64,000 bases of DNA from Rhizocola hellebori (GTDB taxonomy: Bacteria > Actinomycetota > Actinomycetes > Mycobacteriales > Micromonosporaceae). The stretch is from contig NZ_BONY01000008.1 in assembly GCF_016862955.1 (NCBI RefSeq), forward strand, positions 144,352-208,351, written 5' to 3'. The position numbers and the translations under genes were made by a program. This document shows positions 14,167 through 54,276 of this stretch, one piece after another. Position 1 is the stretch's first letter. Every line of letters begins with the position of its first letter. Under the pieces are notes generated by a model that did no database searches, was not told the origin of the DNA, and saw only the letters and a program-made list of their open reading frames with translations.

Positions 14167-15750
14167 CTATGGCTGCAGCCACCGGTTCAGGTAGCCGTGC
14201 AGTCTCGGCAGGCCGGTGACGCCAGCGCGCAAGCCGATGTATCCGTCCGGGCGGACCAGGATGAGGCCGGCGTCGCTGGGGCCGAAACCTAGACGTTGCA
14301 AGGCTTTTCCGGTCGCGTCGGTGCGGCCGGTCGCGGACAGGCGGTGGACCGCTACCGATCGGCTGTGCGGCGGGTGTAACAGTTCCCCGGCTGCGGGCCA
14401 GCCTGGCCCGCACAGCATCAAATGCCAGCCCGGCTGGCGCAACAACGTGTGCAGAGTCGTTGGCAGTCCTTCGTGGATGACTGGTGCGTCGGGCATCCGG
14501 TCGCCTGCCTTCGGCCCGCGGCGAGGAGCATGCGGTTCGTCGATCGACAGCGGGCTGCGCCGGTAGCTGATGGCCAGCTGCGAAATGGTGCGAAACCCGT
14601 ACCGGCGGCTCAGTTTGGAGCAGACCACCAAGGGGATGAGGCGGGGCGCTACCTGCGTGCGGGCGAAGCTCACCAGCGGGTTGGTAGAGGTGGCGATGGT
14701 GAAGGCCCGGTCGGTGAACCGCAGCACCTCAGCACCGATCGGCACACGTTCCGGCTGGTAGGTGTCCAGCAATCGCAACGGGGCAAGGCCGGCCGTGACC
14801 TGGGCGAGTTTCCAGCCCAAATTGACCGCGTCCTGGATGCCGGTGTTCATTCCCTGCGCTCCGGCGGGGCTGTGGATGTGCGCGGCATCCCCGGCCAGAA
14901 ACACCCGCCCGGCCCTATATTGCACCGCTCCCCTGTTGTGCAGCCGAAAATTCGTCATCCACACCGGATCGCGCAACCGCACCCCACCTTCCCCGGTGTA
15001 GGCGTCGGCCAACGCCTGAACCTCGGCCAGAAAGACGGGCTGCGCAACGGGTGTGTCATCAGAGCGCGGTCGCATGGCGAGCATTCGCCAGGTGGCTGGT
15101 TTGCCCAGCGGGAAGAAGAACAGCATTCCGTGCCGGGAAAGGAAGACGTGGGCCGCACCGGTTTCGATCCCGTCAGCCTCCAGATCCGCCAGCACAAAGG
15201 TTTGCGGGTACGCGGCGCCCTCGAAAGCTATCCCGGCCTGCTGCCGCACCGTGGAATGCGCGCCATCACAGCCGACGACGTATCCCACGTCGACCTGTTC
15301 CTGCCTACCGTCGCCGTGGCGAAGCACGCACTTAACCGCATCAGCAGTTTGTCGCATGTGGACAAGCTGGGTACCGCGTTCCACCACCACATCGCGAGAA
15401 GCAAGATGCTCACCCAGGATGCGTTCCGTTTCCGCTTGCGACAGGAACAGCAGGAACGGGTAGGCAGTATCCTCCACTCCGATATCGAACAACTCGACCG
15501 GCACCACGCGCCGCCCCGCGTGCATCCTCAGCTGGACAGCGCGATTGCCCAGGGCGACCAGCTCCTCGGTGACGCCGAGCCCGGCAAGCACCTCCAGCGT
15601 TCGCGGCTGGATCGCCAGCGCCCGCGATTCGCTTGCCCGGTCAAGGTTGCGGTCGACGATCCGCATATTGGTGCCGTAGGCCGCCAGCTGTGCGGCCAGG
15701 CTCAGCCCGGTCGGACCGGCGCCCACGACCAGCACATCCACATCGCTCAT
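14167..15750 (-). CDS. FAD-dependent aromatic-ring monooxygenase (PheA/TfdB / PHBH-fold, with C-terminal thioredoxin-like domain)
   Basis: MSDVDVLVVGAGPTGLSLAAQLAAYG is the FAD GxGxxG; DG and GD motifs (FLAGDAAHIHSPAGAQGMNTGIQDA); 527 aa. Confidence 0.85.
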   Translation of the reverse strand: MSDVDVLVVGAGPTGLSLAAQLAAYGTNMRIVDRNLDRASESRALAIQPRTLEVLAGLGVTEELVALGNRAVQLRMHAGRRVVPVELFDIGVEDTAYPFLLFLSQAETERILGEHLASRDVVVERGTQLVHMRQTADAVKCVLRHGDGRQEQVDVGYVVGCDGAHSTVRQQAGIAFEGAAYPQTFVLADLEADGIETGAAHVFLSRHGMLFFFPLGKPATWRMLAMRPRSDDTPVAQPVFLAEVQALADAYTGEGGVRLRDPVWMTNFRLHNRGAVQYRAGRVFLAGDAAHIHSPAGAQGMNTGIQDAVNLGWKLAQVTAGLAPLRLLDTYQPERVPIGAEVLRFTDRAFTIATSTNPLVSFARTQVAPRLIPLVVCSKLSRRYGFRTISQLAISYRRSPLSIDEPHAPRRGPKAGDRMPDAPVIHEGLPTTLHTLLRQPGWHLMLCGPGWPAAGELLHPPHSRSVAVHRLSATGRTDATGKALQRLGFGPSDAGLILVRPDGYIGLRAGVTGLPRLHGYLNRWLQP

Positions 15751-15807
15751 GGCGGCGACCCACGCCCGGTAGCTGCATCCATGTGGGCACTCCCGTCCAG
15801 CGGCACC

Positions 15808-15830
15808 TATACGTAGGTATCCTACACTAG
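15808..15830. promoter_or_regulatory. GTAGG-TAT-CCTAC palindrome / TAGGTATCCTACACT motif upstream of the monooxygenase. Shared with the PadR promoter at 12872.
   Basis: Read directly. Confidence 0.35.
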
Positions 15831-15831
15831 C

Positions 15832-16218
15832 CTACGGCGCCTGGCAGTGTCCGGACGGCGCGAAGCGGCAGCGCCCATCGCGGCACTCGGCGATGGTGTT
15901 GGTGATGTTCAGGCGGGTCCGCTGCAGCTCGGCGATTTTGGCATCGATGCGGTCCACAACGGCTTCCATGCGCCACAGCTGGCTGGTTTGACTTGCCTCG
16001 CCGGAGTCGTGGGCGCGCAAGGCGTCGATGACCTCGTCGAGGGTGAAGCCGAGCTGTTGAAGCATGCGGGCCATGCGGATGCGCTCGACCGCGTCCGGCG
16101 TGTAGTCGCGATATCCCGAGGGCCGCCGTTGCGCCGGCGGCAGGACTCCGCGGCGCTCATAGAAGCGCACCGTGTCGATGGTGACCCCAGCGTCTGCGGC
16201 GAGCTGACCGATCTTCAC
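15832..16218 (-). CDS. MerR-family transcriptional regulator with C-terminal Cys cluster (C112/C117/C125)
   Basis: MKIGQLAADAGVTIDTVRFYERRGVL is the HTH; the C-terminus is AECRDGRCRFAPSGHC. Confidence 0.9.
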   Translation of the reverse strand: MKIGQLAADAGVTIDTVRFYERRGVLPPAQRRPSGYRDYTPDAVERIRMARMLQQLGFTLDEVIDALRAHDSGEASQTSQLWRMEAVVDRIDAKIAELQRTRLNITNTIAECRDGRCRFAPSGHCQAP

Positions 16219-16242
16219 ATGGGACCTGATTTCTTCGACGTC

Positions 16243-16274
16243 TTGACTCTGGACCTAAGTCCAGAGTTTACGTT
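16243..16274 (+). promoter_or_regulatory. Textbook MerR-type promoter/operator: -35 TTGACT (16243-16248), 20-bp spacer containing the perfect dyad CTCTGGAC-ctaa-GTCCAGAG (16247-16266), -10 TACGTT (16269-16274). It drives the + strand operon, and MerR1 is transcribed divergently.
   Basis: Hexamers, dyad and the overlong 20-bp spacer were read directly; the architecture follows established MerR/ZntR/CueR promoters. Confidence 0.55.
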
Positions 16275-16347
16275 TGGAGGGCAACCGGGGCAACACCCCC
16301 GGTCAGATCCCGAAGGGTGGCAACAGGTGGAGGACAACATCATTTCG

Positions 16348-16743
16348 ATGCCGGACAGGCCGGTCATCGCGTGTGACATGAGCACGGCTCCAGACACGCC
16401 GGACGAGCGGACCGCCGAATACGGCCGGCTGTTCGGGCAGCACCTGCTGGGCAAAGAGCGCACGGCCGAAGGGATCCGCTTCCGGCTGCGTGCCGCCGAA
16501 GGTGTGGAGGCGTGGGTGAGGGACCTTTCCGCGCGGGAGAAGGCGTGCTGCCCGTTCGCCGACTTCGAAATCGCCACCGCCGACGAAGAGGTGCGCTGGG
16601 ACATCACCGTCGTCGACGACGATTTGGCCAGGGCGGCGCTGGACGAGTTCTACCAGGTGCCCGAGATGACAAGCGCCGGTGAAGACTGGCGGGTCATGGG
16701 ACAACGGCTGGCCGATCGCGGCTTCAGCATCACCACCCGCTGA
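16348..16743 (+). CDS. Small cytoplasmic protein with conserved E-x-x-C-C-x-F vicinal-cysteine motif (131 aa). Paralog of the next gene; unknown family.
   Basis: SAREKACCPFADFEI; RBS GGTGGAGGA; it is the C-terminal part of the 298-aa track ORF, which otherwise overlaps MerR1. Confidence 0.55.
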   Translation: MPDRPVIACDMSTAPDTPDERTAEYGRLFGQHLLGKERTAEGIRFRLRAAEGVEAWVRDLSAREKACCPFADFEIATADEEVRWDITVVDDDLARAALDEFYQVPEMTSAGEDWRVMGQRLADRGFSITTR

Positions 16744-16790
16744 CGTCCGGGGTTGCATCCTGTACCTAGGTACAGGTTTACCGTGGGGTC

Positions 16791-17156
16791 ATGACCACAC
16801 CGAACCTGCCGCCGGCCTGGGCGCCCGACGCGTGCACCCTGCCGACCGCAGACCGGCCGCTGCGGCTCTCCGAGTTCGATGACCTATTCACCGGCCTGAC
16901 GTCGCTAGACCGGATCAGCCCCGTCCAGATTCGCCTGCACCTGGCCGGGGCCGCCGGGCTGGAGGCCACGGTGCGCAATCTCACCGCCCGGGAGACCGAG
17001 TGCTGCTCGTTCTTCACCTTCACCACCACACCGGTTCCGGGCACAGCCGACGGCCGGCTGACCCTGGACGTGGAGGTACCCGCAGCGCACATCGCGGTGC
17101 TGGCGGCCCTGGCCGAGCGGGCGGAAACCCTTGCCGCATCAGGAAAGGCGAGCTGA
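16791..17156 (+). CDS. Paralogous small protein with the same vicinal-cysteine motif (121 aa)
   Basis: TARETECCSFFTFT aligns with REKACCPFADFEI in the previous gene; similar length and layout. Confidence 0.55.
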   Translation: MTTPNLPPAWAPDACTLPTADRPLRLSEFDDLFTGLTSLDRISPVQIRLHLAGAAGLEATVRNLTARETECCSFFTFTTTPVPGTADGRLTLDVEVPAAHIAVLAALAERAETLAASGKAS

Positions 17157-17181
17157 TGCAAGCCAGCGCCGGAGGCCGGCC

Positions 17182-17619
17182 GTGAACAATGAGGGCGGGC
17201 TGCGTACCGGTGAGGTCGCCGAACAGGCCGGGGTCAACATCCAAACCTTGCGCTACTACGAACGCCGGGGCCTGATCGCCGAACCCGCCCGCAGCCCCGG
17301 CGGACACCGCACCTACCCGGCCGACACGGTCACCCTGCTCGCCGTCATCAAAGCCGCCCAGAAACTCGGGTTCACCCTCGACGAGGTCGCCGAGCTGCTC
17401 GCCACCGGCCGCCGCCGTCACCCCACCCGCGACCTTCAACACCGGGCCGCCGCCAAACTCACCGAAGTGGACCAAAAGATCGCCCACCTGCACACCATCC
17501 GCCAAGCCCTCACCCAGCTGATCGCCGCCCGCTGCGACAGCCTCACCAACTGCACCTGCGCCGATTGCCCGATGCCGTTTGCCGGACTGGCCCAACCCGA
17601 AGGACCCACACCACAATGA
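17182..17619 (+). CDS. MerR-family regulator with C-terminal Cys-rich tail (CDSLTNCTCADCP)
   Basis: GTG start with a GGAGG SD; HTH GLRTGEVAEQAGVNIQTLRYYERRGL; four Cys in the last 30 aa. Confidence 0.85.
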   Translation: MNNEGGLRTGEVAEQAGVNIQTLRYYERRGLIAEPARSPGGHRTYPADTVTLLAVIKAAQKLGFTLDEVAELLATGRRRHPTRDLQHRAAAKLTEVDQKIAHLHTIRQALTQLIAARCDSLTNCTCADCPMPFAGLAQPEGPTPQ

Positions 17620-17918
17620 CCACACCTGCCACGCAGCAGACGGCACACGGACAAGACAACAGCCCACCCAAACGCAGCAAGATAACCGGCGGGCTCGCCG
17701 CGCTCGCATGCGCGGCCTGCTGCGCCATCCCACTACTGATCGCCGCCGGACTGGTGACCGGCGCAGGAGCCGCGATCCTGGAGAAGACCCTGCTCGCCGT
17801 CGCCGCGCTGCTGGCGGCTGCCGCCCTGGGCATGTGGTGGTGGCACCGCCGCCGCCAAGCCGCAAAAGCCGTCGCCGCGGGCGCATCCGGCTGCGGCAGC
17901 GGCAACTGCTCCTGCTAA
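17616..17918 (+). CDS. MerF/MerT-like small membrane protein (2 TM, CC pair in TM1, C-terminal CGSGNCSC). A putative thiophilic-metal transporter.
   Basis: GGLAALACAACCAIPLLIAAGLV resembles the MerT/MerF TM1 vicinal-Cys motif; ATGA overlap with MerR2. Confidence 0.5.
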   Translation: MTTPATQQTAHGQDNSPPKRSKITGGLAALACAACCAIPLLIAAGLVTGAGAAILEKTLLAVAALLAAAALGMWWWHRRRQAAKAVAAGASGCGSGNCSC

Positions 17919-18128: not shown

Positions 18129-18890
18129 TCAGGCGACTTTGCGGTGGTACACCCTCATGGCGAACGCGTAGGCGACGATGAGGATGCCGGCGCACCAGCC
18201 CAGGGCGATCCAGATGTCATTGCCGACGGGCTGCTGCTCGAACAAGGCTCGCAGGGCGTTGACGATGGAGGTGACCGGCTGGTTCTCGGCGAAGGCTTTC
18301 ACCGGTCCGGGCATGGTTTCGGTGGGGACGAAGGCCGAGCTGATGAAGGGCAGGAAGATGAGCGGGTAGGAGAAGGCGGTCGCACCGTCGGTGGAGGAGG
18401 CCGCCAGCCCCGCGATCATCGCAACCCAGGTCAGGGAGAGGGTGAACATCGCCAGGATCGCGGCGACGGCGAGCCAGTCGAGGATTCCCGCCGAGGTACG
18501 GAATCCCATCACCAGCCCGACGGCGATGATGACGACCACCGAGATGGCGTTGGACACCACCGAGGTCAGCACGTGTCCCCATAGGACAGACGATCGTGCG
18601 ATCGGCATGGAGTGGAACCGTTCGAAGATGCCGCTTTGCATGTCGTTGAACAACCGGAAGCCCGTGTAGGAGATGCCACTGGCGATGGCGATGAGCAAAA
18701 TCCCGGGCATCAGATAGTTGGTGTAGTTGTCGGTGCCGGTCTGGATGGCACCGCCGAACACGTAGCGGAACAACAGCATGAACGCGATCGGCATGATGGT
18801 GACGGTGATGATGGTGTCCATGCTGCGGGTGACGTGCCGGATGGACCGGCCGAGCATTACCCCTGTGTTGCTGATGACATGTGCGCTCAT
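18129..18890 (-). CDS. ABC-2 type exporter permease (6 TM)
   Basis: 253 aa, ABC-2 hydrophobic pattern; ATGA overlap with the ATPase. Confidence 0.85.
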   Translation of the reverse strand: MSAHVISNTGVMLGRSIRHVTRSMDTIITVTIMPIAFMLLFRYVFGGAIQTGTDNYTNYLMPGILLIAIASGISYTGFRLFNDMQSGIFERFHSMPIARSSVLWGHVLTSVVSNAISVVVIIAVGLVMGFRTSAGILDWLAVAAILAMFTLSLTWVAMIAGLAASSTDGATAFSYPLIFLPFISSAFVPTETMPGPVKAFAENQPVTSIVNALRALFEQQPVGNDIWIALGWCAGILIVAYAFAMRVYHRKVA

Positions 18891-19660
18891 CGCCGCGCTC
18901 CTTCCTTGTTTCCGACGATCGCCAGGAAGATCTCTTCCAGGGTGGGCTGACGTTCGACCAGTTCGGCCTTTGCGGGCGGCAGGAGCTGACGTAGCTCTGC
19001 CAGAGTGCCGGAGACGATGATGATGCCCTGGTGCAGGATGGCTATGCGGTCGGCCAGTTTTTCGGCCTCTTCCAGGTATTGGGTGGTGAGAAGGATCGTC
19101 GTTCCTTTGCCGGCCAGGCTTTGGATCTCGTGCCACACTTCGAGGCGGGCTTCCGGGTCAAGCCCGGTGGTCGGCTCGTCCAGGAAGATGACCGGCGGGT
19201 CGCCGATGAGGCTCATGGCGATGTCGAGGCGGCGGCGCATGCCACCGGAATAGGTCGCTACTCGGCGTCCTCCCGCATCGGACAGGCCGAACCGTGCCAG
19301 CAGGTCGTCGGCGACGGTGCCAGGATTGGGTACCAGCCGCAGCTTGGCGACCATGATGAGGTTCTCCCGGCCGGTGAGGATCTCGTCGACCGCGGCGAAC
19401 TGCCCGGTCAGGCTGATCGACTCCCGAACCCGCTCCGGCTTGGCCACCGCGTCGAATCCGTTGACTGTTGCCGTTCCGCCATCTGGTTTGAGCAAAGTGG
19501 ACAGGATGCGGACAACGGTGGTCTTGCCGGCTCCGTTGGAGCCGAGCAGCGCGAAGATGCTCCCGCTGGCCACCGAGAAGTCCACGCCTTTGAGGACTTC
19601 GAGTTTGCCGTAAGACTTTTGCAATCCGCTGACTTGGATGGCGAGGGGTGGGGTTTTCAT
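18887..19660 (-). CDS. ABC transporter ATP-binding protein (DrrA-like)
   Basis: GSNGAGKTT (Walker A), YSGGMRRRLDIAMSL (signature), VIFLDEPTTGLD (Walker B). Confidence 0.9.
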   Translation of the reverse strand: MKTPPLAIQVSGLQKSYGKLEVLKGVDFSVASGSIFALLGSNGAGKTTVVRILSTLLKPDGGTATVNGFDAVAKPERVRESISLTGQFAAVDEILTGRENLIMVAKLRLVPNPGTVADDLLARFGLSDAGGRRVATYSGGMRRRLDIAMSLIGDPPVIFLDEPTTGLDPEARLEVWHEIQSLAGKGTTILLTTQYLEEAEKLADRIAILHQGIIIVSGTLAELRQLLPPAKAELVERQPTLEEIFLAIVGNKEGARR

Positions 19661-19674
19661 GTGTCGCTCTCTCC

Positions 19675-20532
19675 TTATTCGACAGTCACGTTGGCGGGGG
19701 CAACGCCGAAGCCTTTGAGCGCGGCGTAGGTCAGCTTGTCCATGCGCGCCCCTTCGAAGTTCACAGTGGCCAAGGCCCGGTAGTACTTCTTGCTCCAGCC
19801 ACGGAAGGAGCAGTCGCGCAGGATCGCCCCTCGCATCGACACGCCCTCAAGCCCTGCCCGGTCGAACTTCACCCCGGTGAAGGACGCCCCGTCGAAGTTG
19901 AGGCCGCTCAGATCGGAGATGGAGAAGTCCACGCCGGTGAAGGTGCAGCGCTCGAAGATGGTGTGGCGAAGGTCGGTCTTGCGGAACGCGACATCGATCA
20001 ACACCGCGTCGGCGAAGCGGACTCCTTCGAGACCGGAGATGCTGAAGTCGGTGCGCACCAACCGGGTTCGGTGGAAGCTGGAACCCTTCAGCTCGGAGGT
20101 GGTCATGACCGCGTCGGTCAGGTTGGCGCCGTCGAAGTTCGCCTCGGCCAGGTCGCTGCTCTTGAACTTGCCACCGGTCAGATCCGCGTTGGCGAAATTG
20201 GAGCCACGCAGCGCGCTGGTGCTGAACTTTCCGTCCCGCGCCACCACACCGGCGAAGTCGCTTCCCCGCAGGTCGGTCGAATCGAATCGGGTCACGACCT
20301 TTCGCTCCAGCACCCGAGACAGTTGCGACACCTCCTGCACCGTCTCCTCGATGTCGCCGATGCTGTCGACGGTCATCTCGAAAGCGGTCTCCTCGTCCTT
20401 GCCTTCGGCCAGCAGCTCGCGATATCGCTCCTGCAGGTCGGCGAGCAGATCAGCTTTGAGCTCACCGACGCTCTTGGTGCCCTCGTAGGTGGCGAAGATG
20501 CCGTCGATGTATTCGTTCAGCCTGTTGTTCAT
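19675..20532 (-). CDS. Pentapeptide-repeat protein with N-terminal PadR-associated (HAAS/DUF1700-like) helical domain. No TM segment.
   Basis: N-terminus MNNRLNEYIDGIFATYEGTKSVGELKADLLADLQERYRELLAEGKDEETAFEMTVDSIGDIEET; residues 80-285 are continuous A(D/N)LxG pentapeptide repeats. Confidence 0.8.
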   Translation of the reverse strand: MNNRLNEYIDGIFATYEGTKSVGELKADLLADLQERYRELLAEGKDEETAFEMTVDSIGDIEETVQEVSQLSRVLERKVVTRFDSTDLRGSDFAGVVARDGKFSTSALRGSNFANADLTGGKFKSSDLAEANFDGANLTDAVMTTSELKGSSFHRTRLVRTDFSISGLEGVRFADAVLIDVAFRKTDLRHTIFERCTFTGVDFSISDLSGLNFDGASFTGVKFDRAGLEGVSMRGAILRDCSFRGWSKKYYRALATVNFEGARMDKLTYAALKGFGVAPANVTVE

Positions 20533-20544
20533 CGTGGTTTCCCC

Positions 20545-20874
20545 TTACAGCAGCGTGTCCAGTACGCGTTTGGCGTACGCCCAGGTGGTTTTGTTGTGCG
20601 CGTAAGTCGCGTGGCCTTTTTCGGTTACCCGGAAGTACTTGCGTCTTCCGCCCTGGGATTCGTCGCCCCAGTACCACGTGATGTCGCCATCGGCTTCCAG
20701 ACGCCGGACGCTGGAGTACATCGTGGCTTCCTTGAGCTCGTACTCGCCCTTTGATCGTTCGCCGATCAGCTTGACGATCTCGTAGCCGTAACGGTCTGCC
20801 TCCGTCAGCAACCGCAAGATCATCGTGTCGGTGTTCCCCCGTAGCAGGTCAGATGTGACCTTGTTCGTGCTCAT
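20545..20874 (-). CDS. PadR-family transcriptional regulator (lower GC than its neighbours)
   Basis: LRGNTDTMILRLLTEADRYGYEIVKLI...TMYSSVRRLEADGDI. Confidence 0.9.
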   Translation of the reverse strand: MSTNKVTSDLLRGNTDTMILRLLTEADRYGYEIVKLIGERSKGEYELKEATMYSSVRRLEADGDITWYWGDESQGGRRKYFRVTEKGHATYAHNKTTWAYAKRVLDTLL

Positions 20875-52251: not shown

Positions 52252-52524
52252 ATGGATCTGCTGCTGCTCGTCGCCATTGCCGCTGCGGTCTGCGCCGGTG
52301 TCGCGGGGCTCGCGTTTGATTTCCGCCCCGGCATCTGGCGCAAGAACCCGCCGCGGATGTTCGCCGCAACCATGTTCTGCTTTACGGTGGCCCTGCTCGC
52401 CATGTACGGCCGTCGCCACGTCGAAGCCACCAGCTCCGTGGCGGGCCTGCTGTCTCTGGTGTCGGTCGCGGGTATGTTCGGCGCAACCATATTGATGCTG
52501 AGGGCTCGTAAGGCGAGTCGCTAG
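52252..52524 (+). CDS. Possible small membrane protein (90 aa, 3 TM); weak call
   Basis: Hydrophobic ORF in an otherwise empty gap; no clear SD. Confidence 0.25.
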   Translation: MDLLLLVAIAAAVCAGVAGLAFDFRPGIWRKNPPRMFAATMFCFTVALLAMYGRRHVEATSSVAGLLSLVSVAGMFGATILMLRARKASR

Positions 52525-52874
52525 CTTTCCACCAAATTTTCCAGGGTACCGGTCAGCAGCCGACGGGTTCGCTGTAGTTCAGCGATGGAATGGTCCACAT
52601 CGCGGATCTGGCCCCGAAGCCGTTCCAGGGCAGCCGGACAGGCCGTCAGAGCTCCTCCTGCGTCGAAGCATGCCAGCACCTGCGCAACGGCTTGCAGGCC
52701 GAGGCCGATGTCGAGCAGAAGCCGGATCCGGCGCACCTCCTCGACGGAGTGCTCCTCAAAGTCGCGGTACCCGTTGTGGAGACGCCGCGAGGACAACAGG
52801 CCCAGGCGGTCGTAGTGCCGCAGCGCCCGCGTGCTGACGCCGCTGCGCTGAGCCAACTGGTTGATCAGCATCAT
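52521..52874 (-). CDS. MerR-family transcriptional regulator
   Basis: MMLINQLAQRSGVSTRALRHYDRLGLL is the HTH. Confidence 0.85.
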   Translation of the reverse strand: MMLINQLAQRSGVSTRALRHYDRLGLLSSRRLHNGYRDFEEHSVEEVRRIRLLLDIGLGLQAVAQVLACFDAGGALTACPAALERLRGQIRDVDHSIAELQRTRRLLTGTLENLVES

Positions 52875-52995: not shown

Positions 52996-54276
52996 GTGAA
53001 CGTCGTGGTGACCCAGCTGACCAAACTGCGCGACGACCTGCGCGGTCCACAGGATCCGCGGCAGCGGTTGATGGCGCTGTCCACTCTGATCAACACCGTC
53101 GGCATGGGACTTTTCCTCTCCGCGGGCACCATCTTCCTCATCCGGTCGGCGGGGCTGAGCCCGGCCGCCGCGGGCGTCGGTCTCACCGTCGGCTCACTGA
53201 TCGGCTTCGGCGCAGGGGTGTTCGTCGGCGACCTGGCTGACCGGCGGGGCGCCCGCGAGGTGGTCATCGCCTCGATGCTGGTGGAGGCCGTGGCCAGCGT
53301 CGGGCTGCTGCTGGTACACGACATATGGATGTTGATTGTGGTGGCGACGGTCGCGGCGGTGGGCCGGGCAGGCTCGGGAAGTGCCCGCGGGGCGATGATT
53401 GGTGTGCTGGCCGAGCAGGGCAAGGGCGCCGCACTGCGTACTTACTTGCGTGCGGTCACCAACGTCGGTCTGGCGGTGGGCATGCTCGGTGCCGCAATCG
53501 TTTTAGCCGTCGACAGCCGCCCGGCCTACGTAACCATGGTGCTCACTGATGCGGCGACCTTCCTCGTCGCCGCTGCTGTGCTCGCGCGGCTGCGGCACCT
53601 CCCGCCGACCCGCAGCGCCAAGTCTGCCCCGGACGAGCGTCGCTGGCTGGCCCTTCGCGACCGGCACTACCTGGCGTTCACCGCCGCGTCGTCGGTGGCG
53701 AGCCTGCAGTACTGGGTACTTGTCCAGGCGCTACCGGTGTGGATCGTCCTGCGGACGGCGGCGCCGCGCCCCATGGCGGGGCTCGTCCTGTTCGTCGCCG
53801 CGGTGACCGTTGCCATCACCCAGATTCCGGCCACCCGGTCCATCGACGGCCCCCGGGCGGCGGCTCGGCTGCTGGCCCGTTCGGGCCCGCTCTTCCTGGT
53901 GGCCTGGATCCTGATGGCCATGGCGTCCGGCCCGTCGGTGTGGGCCGCGGTCGCCATTCTGCTGACCGCGGTGCTCATACACTCATTGGCCGAAGTCTGG
54001 CAGGCGGCAGGGACCTTCGAACTGTCCTTCGCGCTGGCCCGGCCCGAAGCGCAGGGCCAGTATCAGGGCGTGATCGGGCTCGGCCACGGCTTTGTGGAAG
54101 CGATGGCACCGGTCATCGTCATGACACTGTGCATCGGCGCGGGCAAGGTCGGCTGGGTCACCCTCGCGGTGATCGTCACGTTGGCGGGCTTCCTATGTGC
54201 ACGCATCGAGCGGCAACGGTCCAGCACCCACCTCGAGGCCGCTCACGGCACGGCCGCCTTGCCGTCAAACCCGTAA
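52996..54276 (+). CDS. MFS transporter
   Basis: 426 aa, 12 TM. Confidence 0.85.
   Translation: MNVVVTQLTKLRDDLRGPQDPRQRLMALSTLINTVGMGLFLSAGTIFLIRSAGLSPAAAGVGLTVGSLIGFGAGVFVGDLADRRGAREVVIASMLVEAVASVGLLLVHDIWMLIVVATVAAVGRAGSGSARGAMIGVLAEQGKGAALRTYLRAVTNVGLAVGMLGAAIVLAVDSRPAYVTMVLTDAATFLVAAAVLARLRHLPPTRSAKSAPDERRWLALRDRHYLAFTAASSVASLQYWVLVQALPVWIVLRTAAPRPMAGLVLFVAAVTVAITQIPATRSIDGPRAAARLLARSGPLFLVAWILMAMASGPSVWAAVAILLTAVLIHSLAEVWQAAGTFELSFALARPEAQGQYQGVIGLGHGFVEAMAPVIVMTLCIGAGKVGWVTLAVIVTLAGFLCARIERQRSSTHLEAAHGTAALPSNP

Follow-up and report, generated by a model that had tools for sequence, protein, structure and literature searches.

Among the known systems closest to the locus analysed here are the mercury resistance (mer) operons of Tn21 and Tn501, which are governed by MerR-family regulators with a helix-turn-helix (HTH) and a coiled coil, acting at a promoter whose over-long spacer holds a dyad that starts inside the -35 box. 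The Tn21 operator, as verified on plasmid R100, lies between merR and merT and reads TTGACT-CCGTACATGAGTACGGAAG-TAAGGT. Two further systems offer comparisons for individual components, namely ArsD, an arsenic metallochaperone with a thioredoxin-like fold and a Cys12-Cys13-Cys18 site, and TipAL/TipAS of Streptomyces, where a MerR regulator and its cysteine-reactive binding domain occur both fused and free. The present study concerns five genes, merR1, ccA, ccB, merR2 and mem, which were recognised from the sequence and its list of open reading frames (ORFs) in a 64,000-nucleotide stretch of the Rhizocola hellebori genome (contig NZ_BONY01000008.1, positions 144,352 to 208,351 of the forward strand), referred to below as the window. 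The genes merR1 and merR2 encode MerR-family regulators, ccA and ccB encode small paralogous proteins with a vicinal cysteine pair (the CC proteins), and mem encodes a small membrane protein.

A first-pass annotation of this DNA had proposed one thiophilic-metal cassette, transcribed as a single operon and ending in a MerF-like transporter. Its regulators and promoter features, the novelty of the CC proteins and the metal-related context were upheld by our analysis; the single operon and the MerF family membership were not, and mercury is not the ligand that the context favours. As judged from sequence comparison, the locus is made up of two separable modules, merR1-P1-ccA (divergent) and P2-ccB-merR2-mem, with the pairing of a MerR and a CC protein as the constant feature of both. 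The best explanation that we can offer is an undescribed cassette of two MerR-CC units for sensing and binding a thiophilic metal or metalloid, a reading whose chances we put at about even.

Two promoters and two separable modules

The boxes of P1, between merR1 and ccA, were read directly from the sequence as TTGACT (-35, 16243-16248) and TACGTT (-10, 16269-16274) with a spacer of 20 bp, and the perfect 8+8 dyad CTCTGGAC-ctaa-GTCCAGAG at 16247-16266 is present in a single copy in the window, against 0.02 matches expected by chance. All of these elements, together with the divergent position of merR1, had already been recognised in the first-pass annotation. Its further proposal, that this one promoter drives all four genes downstream, is contradicted by a second promoter, P2, which fills the 47-bp gap between ccA and ccB, directly before ccB, and which recurs at this place in 74 of the 80 further genomes compared. 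P2 contains a perfect 18-bp palindrome, CCTGTACCTAGGTACAGG, at 16759-16776 (one copy in the window, 0 expected by chance), and the half-sites of P1 and P2 differ at one position (CTGGACCT versus CTGTACCT). Both promoters thus show the 19-20-bp spacer, with a dyad between the boxes, that characterises the targets of the MerR family. The -10 box of P2 ends only 6 nt ahead of the ccB ATG, so that the ccB-merR2-mem mRNA is probably leaderless; further along this operon, the merR2 stop codon overlaps the mem start codon as ATGA (17616-17619), a coupling that had been pointed out before. A candidate promoter for merR1 on the minus strand (TTGCCC at 16289-16294, an 18-bp spacer and TAAACT at 16265-16270) would plausibly face P1 and overlap its operator. 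A generic sigma-70 promoter scan returned nothing in the cassette region, which was to be expected with 20-bp spacers.

The resemblance to merOP of Tn21 is close, since P1 shares its TTGACT box and dyad placement, P2 shares the GTAC-N4-GTAC core, and merR1 is divergent as in Tn21. The differences from Tn21/Tn501 are that the spacer is 20 bp here instead of 19, that merR2 lies inside its own operon, and that MerA, MerP and MerB are all missing here.

For the conservation of the two units, the surroundings of ccB were scanned in one genome per species, giving 80 loci, with neighbouring genes placed by tblastn. The P2-like sequence TTGCAT-CC(G/T)GTACC-NN-GGTAC(A/G)GG-(C/T)TTACCGT stands upstream of ccB in 74 of these loci, and those 74 were its only matches across 1.54 Mb searched on both strands; wherever the alignment extends to residue 1, P2 and the start codon are separated by the 7-nt offset seen in the window. 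Most of the loci have merR2 downstream of ccB and usually also mem; in many, merR2 follows ccB directly, and elsewhere another gene is inserted between them. This unit occurs without merR1-ccA in 79 of the 80 loci. The exception is a Virgisporangium locus (L032), where the two units adjoin in a relative orientation unlike that of the window and a MerR1 homologue is again divergent from a ccA homologue. The first unit occurs without the second in five cases (L081, L082/83, L087, L088 and L089), with merR1 homologues of 123-129 aa divergent from ccA homologues and with unrelated flanking genes. In the loci compared for P1 (L032, L081 and L082/83), the promoter is kept in the form TTGACTCTGGACCTAAGTCCAGA-N3-TACGnT in the space separating the homologues of ccA and merR1, with 2-4 mismatches in 32 bases. 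The units are therefore treated as separable modules because each has its own conserved promoter, because they are found separately across Actinomycetota, and because their arrangement differs in L032.

One locus (L001) comes from a Candidatus Limnocylindrales metagenome-assembled genome (DASUXL010000331.1) binned as Chloroflexota, and its ccB, merR2 and mem products are 76-85% identical to the Rhizocola proteins, which suggests either a recent horizontal transfer or a mis-binned actinobacterial contig.

A protein family with three conserved cysteines

CC-A and CC-B are 38% identical over 98 aa (E 6e-11) and share the E-x-x-C-C-x-F motif, so the earlier description of two paralogues of about 125 aa is matched by proteins of 131 and 121 aa, with one addition that had escaped it: besides the vicinal pair, each has another conserved cysteine close to its N-terminus (C9 in CC-A, C15 in CC-B). 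The proteins of the window were scanned with the hidden Markov models (HMMs) of Pfam and NCBIfam at curated cut-offs, and neither CC protein had a match in either collection at E up to 1. Likewise, none of 127 aligned family members matched any Pfam family, and sequence and profile searches with CC-A, CC-B and the family profile found no meaningful relative in the PDB. Counted at the 90% cluster level, CC-A has 345 homologues, all of them unnamed and without Pfam domains, and CC-B has 1354; in a library at 50% identity, the family comprises 3389 representatives at E<=1e-3 and 1026 at E<=1e-10.

The AlphaFold2 model of CC-B (mean predicted local distance difference test, pLDDT, 80.6) consists of a disordered arm, residues 1-22, followed by an alpha-beta-beta-alpha-beta-beta-alpha sandwich with the cysteine pair at the end of helix 57-71, and fold searches with it returned no significant structural neighbour. 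The statement that these proteins belong to no known family can thus be extended from sequence to fold, and a literature search found no description of either the family or the cassette. Residues C71, C72, F74, R25, E28, L32, L64 and L104 (CC-B numbering) are invariant, and conservation reaches at least 90% for C15 and for a number of Arg, Asp and Glu positions. The indications for a putative, cysteine-dependent metal binding by this domain are the conservation of C15, C71 and C72 and the genomic context.

Two assignments were considered and rejected. UniRef automatically names CC-B "Arsenate reductase"; no ArsC model matched it, and no ArsC was found among structural neighbours. ArsD is similar in being a small cytoplasmic protein with a vicinal cysteine pair and, as proposed here for the CC proteins, a third cysteine, encoded near metalloid resistance genes; it differs from them in its thioredoxin-like fold, in the absence of any sequence or fold relation (no ArsD match by HMM or fold search), and in having an ArsA partner, which the CC proteins lack.

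The MerR regulators

Both regulators, as had been recognised before, are MerR proteins, well above the Pfam cut-offs of 21.6 bits for MerR_1 (MerR1 75.6, MerR2 70.1) and 25.4 bits for MerR-DNA-bind (39.0 and 53.0, respectively). At the same time, they fall below every NCBIfam equivalog cut-off for metal-specific MerRs. The best NCBIfam match of both is the model of the Hg(II)-responsive MerR, TIGR02051 (83.3 for MerR1 and 108.5 for MerR2 against a cut-off of 150.85), and both score higher with the metal-sensing models MerR, ZntR, CadR and CueR than with NmlR or SoxR.

The cysteines of the sensors are concentrated in the C-terminal loop. MerR1 has the family-invariant motif C112-R-x-G-x-C117-R-F, its C125 being not conserved. 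MerR2 contains the cluster Cys118-x5-Cys124-x-Cys126-x2-Cys129 noted in the first-pass annotation, and its relatives share C-D-[SD]-L-x2-C-x4-5-C-P-[ILM]-P-F, in which three cysteines are invariant and the fourth is variable. MerR2 is 37.6% identical to Tn21 MerR, with the first and last loop cysteines aligned with Cys117 and Cys126, which together with Cys82 are the three metal ligands of Hg-MerR; pairwise alignment places no cysteine at the position of Tn21 Cys82 in either MerR1 or MerR2. Classification as an Hg(II)-responsive MerR was rejected on these grounds, that is, the sub-threshold scores and the missing Cys82 equivalent. MerR2 was also compared with the redox sensor SoxR, a MerR protein with a [2Fe-2S] cluster, which it resembles in that four cysteines are packed into 12 residues near the C-terminus, the last of them followed by proline; this assignment was rejected because the spacing is C-x5-C-x-C-x2-C in MerR2 and C-x2-C-x-C-x5-C in SoxR, because only three of the cysteines are invariant, and because the score of 76.7 lies under the TIGR01950 cut-off of 116.9.

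The membrane protein Mem

Mem combines C32-x2-C35-C36-x2-P39 in helix 1 with the tail CGSGNCSC (C93, C98 and C100), and its AlphaFold2 model (pLDDT 65) has helices at 21-47 and 54-90; the two transmembrane helices, the cysteine pair and the tail correspond to the original description. Among 120 homologues, CxxCCxxP is found in 117, and at least three cysteines within the last 25 residues in 113. Its architecture, with a vicinal pair followed by proline in helix 1, a second helix and then cytoplasmic cysteines, is that of MerT, MerF, MerC and MerE, and its two-helix size is that of MerF and MerE. Over helices 1-2 of Tn21 MerT the identity is 33%, with C35-C36-x2-P39 on C24-C25-x2-P28, the E-value of this pairwise comparison being optimistic because no composition correction was applied.

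Membership in these families is a different matter. All HMM scores of Mem lie below the curated cut-offs (Pfam MerT 20.6 against 32.9 and MerC 20.2 against 27.6; NCBIfam MerT 18.4 against 150 and MerE 17.3 against 80), no MerF model matched in Pfam or NCBIfam, and assignment to any of the four families by HMM was consequently rejected. In a sample of 53 family members, weak and always sub-threshold matches recurred to MerC (29), MerT (25) and MerE (9), and to no other functional family; automatic pipelines label relatives of Mem as mercuric ion transport protein. The family profile found no PDB chain at E up to 10, and a Foldseek search with the model gave no matches, which is uninformative for a helical hairpin. 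Mem also differs from the mer transporters in an additional cysteine (C-x2-CC), in its longer Gly/Cys-rich tail, in having no linkage to MerA in any of the 80 chromosomal loci, and in that some relatives are fused to a cytoplasmic CC domain. Thus, the label "MerT/MerF-like" stands for the architecture of Mem, which is at most a putative member of those families.

Fusions of the CC domain

Domain fusions are the most informative functional evidence available for this locus. In P0372, a full MerR, with HTH and dimerisation helix, carries a CC-A-like domain at its C-terminus, the usual position of a MerR effector domain. Several loci (L015, L016) have, between ccB and merR2, a gene of about 290 aa in which a MerR HTH and a C-x3-C-x-C linker are joined, again in the usual effector position, to a third paralogue of the CC proteins, and P0405 and P0439 are CC-B::MerR2 fusions with the CC domain N-terminal. 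Fusions of this kind argue that the CC domain binds the same ligand as that to which the MerRs respond. In P0402 and P0412, a CC-A-like domain is joined to two helices that resemble those of Mem and end in a cysteine tail, which argues that the domain works beside the membrane protein, on the cytoplasmic side. Finally, P0442 and P0413 are thioredoxin::CC-B fusions, from which a need of the CC cysteines for reducing equivalents may be argued.

In some Actinoplanes and Jidongwangia genomes, ccB is moreover in frame with the following MerR-HTH::CC gene (L014, 4983-5942; L021, 4998-5999; L015, 5375-6247; L016, 3430-4449), so that the ORFs span 319-333 aa and include two CC domains; they may be real fusions or sequencing frameshifts.

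Genomic neighbourhoods and the candidate ligand

Neighbouring genes were counted in the 80 chromosomal loci. YnfA was the most frequent (20 loci), followed by ArsR/SmtB regulators (16), ArsO at the level of an equivalog match (7), ArsN1-like proteins (7), a CDF-like transporter with a CC tail (7), S-(hydroxymethyl)mycothiol dehydrogenase, the mycothiol formaldehyde dehydrogenase (6), MFS transporters (6), a transporter distantly related to ACR3 (5) and ArsC-like proteins (4). At least one arsenic-type gene was present within 5 kb in 14 of the loci. MerA, in contrast, was found within that distance in none of the 80; the sole tblastn hit, in L003 at 26% identity, was taken as a different oxidoreductase. 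A tblastn search with the MerA of the Nocardioides plasmid pNOCA01 found none in the 64-kb window either, in line with the first-pass annotation, which had noted no MerA in the locus, and membership in the mer operons was therefore rejected.

MerA adjoins the cassette only on plasmid pNOCA01 itself, where merA and an Hg-type MerR (Cys77, Cys120 and Cys127) are followed by an ACR3-like BASS transporter and then by two cassettes. Both of these carry a P2-type promoter; one is followed by a redoxin and CcdA, and the other by YnfA. The Mem counterparts there were recognised by position and the CxxCC-x2-P motif only, tblastn of Mem against plasmids having given no match. On a Mycobacterium paragordonae plasmid, ArsR and a P-type ATPase adjoin CC-MerR-YnfA, with CadI/ArsI nearby.

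The homology of the regulator and the membrane protein points to Hg, and the genomic context is more frequently that of arsenic genes or of a general island for metals; with MerA at 0 of 80 loci and arsenic-type genes at 14 of 80, mercury is not the ligand favoured by context. The CC family, MerR2 and Mem have a three-cysteine theme in common, to which As(III)/Sb(III), Hg(II), Pb(II) or Cd(II) would be suited. If the cassette does respond to a metal or metalloid, As(III)/Sb(III) would be our leading, still tentative, choice of ligand; Hg(II) is less probable than that, Cd/Pb/Zn are doubtful candidates, and Cu/Ag/Au seem quite unlikely.

Two observations on transporters deserve separate mention. 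A short CDF-like transporter with a cysteine-rich, CC-containing C-terminal tail is paired with an ArsR-family regulator in L045, L047, L064, L078 and L089, and this pair, which recurs right beside ccA as well as ccB genes, may be part of the same metal response. In Nonomuraea, a DUF4396 membrane protein (L082/L083, 4113-4535) adjoins the MerR1 homologue, in a single occurrence.

Coordinates and other features of the window

The features of the locus are listed in Table 1. In the deposited annotation, ccA is Rhe02_17030, with a GTG start at 16327 and 138 aa; CC-A is 100% identical to this Rhizocola hellebori hypothetical protein, and CC-B likewise to Rhe02_17040. The top database match of the window Mem is a protein (P0241) of only 79% identity, compared with 100% for CC-A and CC-B, and the mem ORF therefore probably lacks annotation in the deposited assembly.

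Table 1 Features of the two MerR-CC units (positions within the window)
Feature	Position	Strand	Description
merR1	15832-16218	-	128-aa MerR-family regulator; Pfam MerR_1 and MerR-DNA-bind
P1	16243-16274	+	MerR-type promoter/operator of ccA; TTGACT-N20-TACGTT
Candidate merR1 promoter	16265-16294	-	read by eye; inferred
ccA	16348-16743	+	131-aa cytoplasmic CC-family protein; C9, C67, C68
P2	16753-16784	+	second MerR-type promoter/operator; TTGCAT-N20-TACCGT
ccB	16791-17156	+	121-aa CC-family protein; C15, C71, C72; first gene of P2 operon
merR2	17182-17619	+	145-aa MerR-family regulator; C118, C124, C126, C129
mem	17616-17918	+	100-aa protein, two transmembrane helices

Short inverted repeats (ACCTA-tacg-TAGGT and GTAGG-tat-CCTAC) cluster and overlap at 15800-15830, in the space that separates merR1, at its 3' end, from the start of the gene of a 527-aa flavin adenine dinucleotide-dependent aromatic-ring hydroxylase (14167-15750, minus strand), and could be an operator of the hydroxylase gene or a terminator of merR1. 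Just downstream of mem, 18129-20874 (minus strand) was read by eye as an operon for a PadR-like regulator, a pentapeptide-repeat protein, an ATP-binding cassette (ABC) ATPase and an ABC-2 permease, and no tie between it and the cassette was seen. A third MerR-family gene at 52521-52874 (minus strand) encodes a protein of 117 aa that is 38% identical to MerR1 and has no C-terminal cysteine motif; it is divergent from 52996-54276 (plus strand), an apparent multi-pass membrane transporter gene (judged without a Pfam scan), and the two have the look of a regulator with its exporter of the drug type, without relation to the CC modules.

Discussion

The scheme that we infer for the metal- or metalloid-responsive cassette, from DNA binding and induction through ligand binding to the direction of transport, would run as follows. 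In unit 1, merR1 and ccA are divergent around P1, and unit 2, probably without a leader and under autoregulation, would be transcribed from P2, each MerR dimer sitting on the dyad within its 20-bp-spacer promoter. On binding of a thiophilic metal or metalloid to its cysteine loop, the dimer would untwist the DNA and switch transcription on, as Tn21 MerR does at merOP. The induced CC proteins would bind the same ligand at a three-sulphur site, formed by the cysteine of the flexible N-terminal arm and the vicinal pair, and would buffer it in the cytoplasm. In unit 2, CC-B could exchange the ligand with Mem, whose CC-x2-P helix and cysteine tail may pass it at or across the membrane. Elsewhere, the operon is followed by an exporter gene (YnfA, an ACR3-like BASS or an MFS transporter). 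The arrangement recalls TipAL/TipAS by analogy, in that a ligand-binding domain is fused to a MerR or free, is MerR-induced, and could sequester the inducer through cysteine; the CC family is unrelated to it, and the free form here is a separate gene and not the product of an alternative start.

Several points weigh against this scheme. A MerT-like importer without MerA is physiologically implausible for Hg, and neither the window nor any of the 80 loci encodes MerA. Around the N-terminal cysteine of CC-B the pLDDT stays below 50, which leaves the three-sulphur site outside the confident part of the model, and the conserved R25, E28, R48, R62, D63, R67, E68 and D93 resemble an enzyme or interaction surface more than a plain site for binding. 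MerR1 keeps two cysteines only, in a C-x4-C pattern that fits a disulphide switch equally well, and Mem fails all mer-transporter cut-offs, with no PDB match by profile or fold. The thioredoxin fusions, the redoxin and CcdA, the rhodanese and the mycothiol-dependent formaldehyde dehydrogenase, finally, suit thiol-redox or electrophile chemistry just as well.

This last point leads to the main rival, which we consider unlikely, namely that the units are thiol-redox or electrophile stress modules, in which the MerR loops sense oxidation or alkylation and the CC proteins are redox-active and recycled by thioredoxin, serving as small reductases or as scavengers of electrophiles, organoarsenicals or reactive sulphur and selenium species. 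Fusion of CC-B to thioredoxin in P0442 and P0413 would be readily understood in these terms, as would the redoxin and CcdA after one pNOCA01 cassette, the rhodanese gene that separates ccB from merR2 in 3 loci, and the nearby dehydrogenase in 6, which is a typical target of NmlR/AdhR-type MerRs; the invariant C-x4-C of MerR1 could form a disulphide, the CC family has many conserved Arg, Glu and Asp residues, and TipAL/TipAS provides an actinobacterial precedent. However, both MerRs score best with metal-sensing models and not with NmlR or SoxR, MerR2 has three invariant cysteines only and lacks the CX2CXCX5C spacing of SoxR, Mem resembles mercury transporters, and regulators and exporters of metals are the genes most often found nearby.

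Somewhat less probable again is a role of the CC proteins as regulatory partners of the MerRs instead of effectors, whether as co-sensors, as loading or stripping chaperones, or as MerD-like anti-activators, the true outputs then being Mem, the exporters or unlinked genes. It would account for MerR-CC pairing as the sole constant feature of both modules and for fusion in both orders, with the CC domain C-terminal in P0372 and the L015 type and N-terminal in P0405 and P0439. Against it, unit 1 has no output gene besides ccA in any locus seen, its flanks being unrelated, and there is a single copy of the P1 or P2 operator per locus and one of each in the window; the CC::Mem fusions, moreover, indicate a membrane role too. 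The single operon of the first-pass annotation, a reduced mer-like mercury system under MerR1 that runs from P1 through ccA-ccB-merR2-mem, is the least likely arrangement, for although the four genes lie on one strand with short gaps and without a terminator-like site after ccA, P1 closely matches merOP of Tn21, mer proteins are the nearest to MerR2 and Mem, and merA is adjacent on pNOCA01, the complete and strongly conserved P2, the separate occurrence of the units, the absence of MerA and the missing Cys82 of Hg-MerR all speak against it.

Returning to the reading as a cassette for a thiophilic metal or metalloid, a bolder form of it can be put forward, which we regard as improbable at present. 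MerR2, and perhaps MerR1, would be the first trivalent-metalloid sensor of the MerR family, detecting As(III), Sb(III) or organoarsenicals with a three-cysteine loop, and the CC domain would be a new three-sulphur chaperone fold for metalloids or metals, used free, as a sensor domain of MerRs, or on a MerT-like membrane protein, in a MerA- and ArsA-independent pathway widespread in Actinomycetota. To our knowledge, the known soft-metal chaperones, such as MerP, CopZ and ArsD, have ferredoxin-like or thioredoxin-like folds. The As(III) sensors covered by a review (PMC11672702) are all of the ArsR family.

The CC family has thousands of members, which are unannotated and are tied to MerR regulators by gene order, by a near-invariant operator and by fusions. 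Identification of the ligand would give a name to a large family of "hypothetical proteins" of soil actinomycetes and of mycobacterial and Nocardioides resistance plasmids, and might extend the MerR regulators by a metal-binding domain and a class of ligand that are both new. Once the ligand is identified, biosensors could also draw on the two promoter-sensor pairs of the locus, which are compact and highly conserved. If the thiol-redox function proved to be the true one, the CC proteins would represent a new MerR-controlled stress effector.

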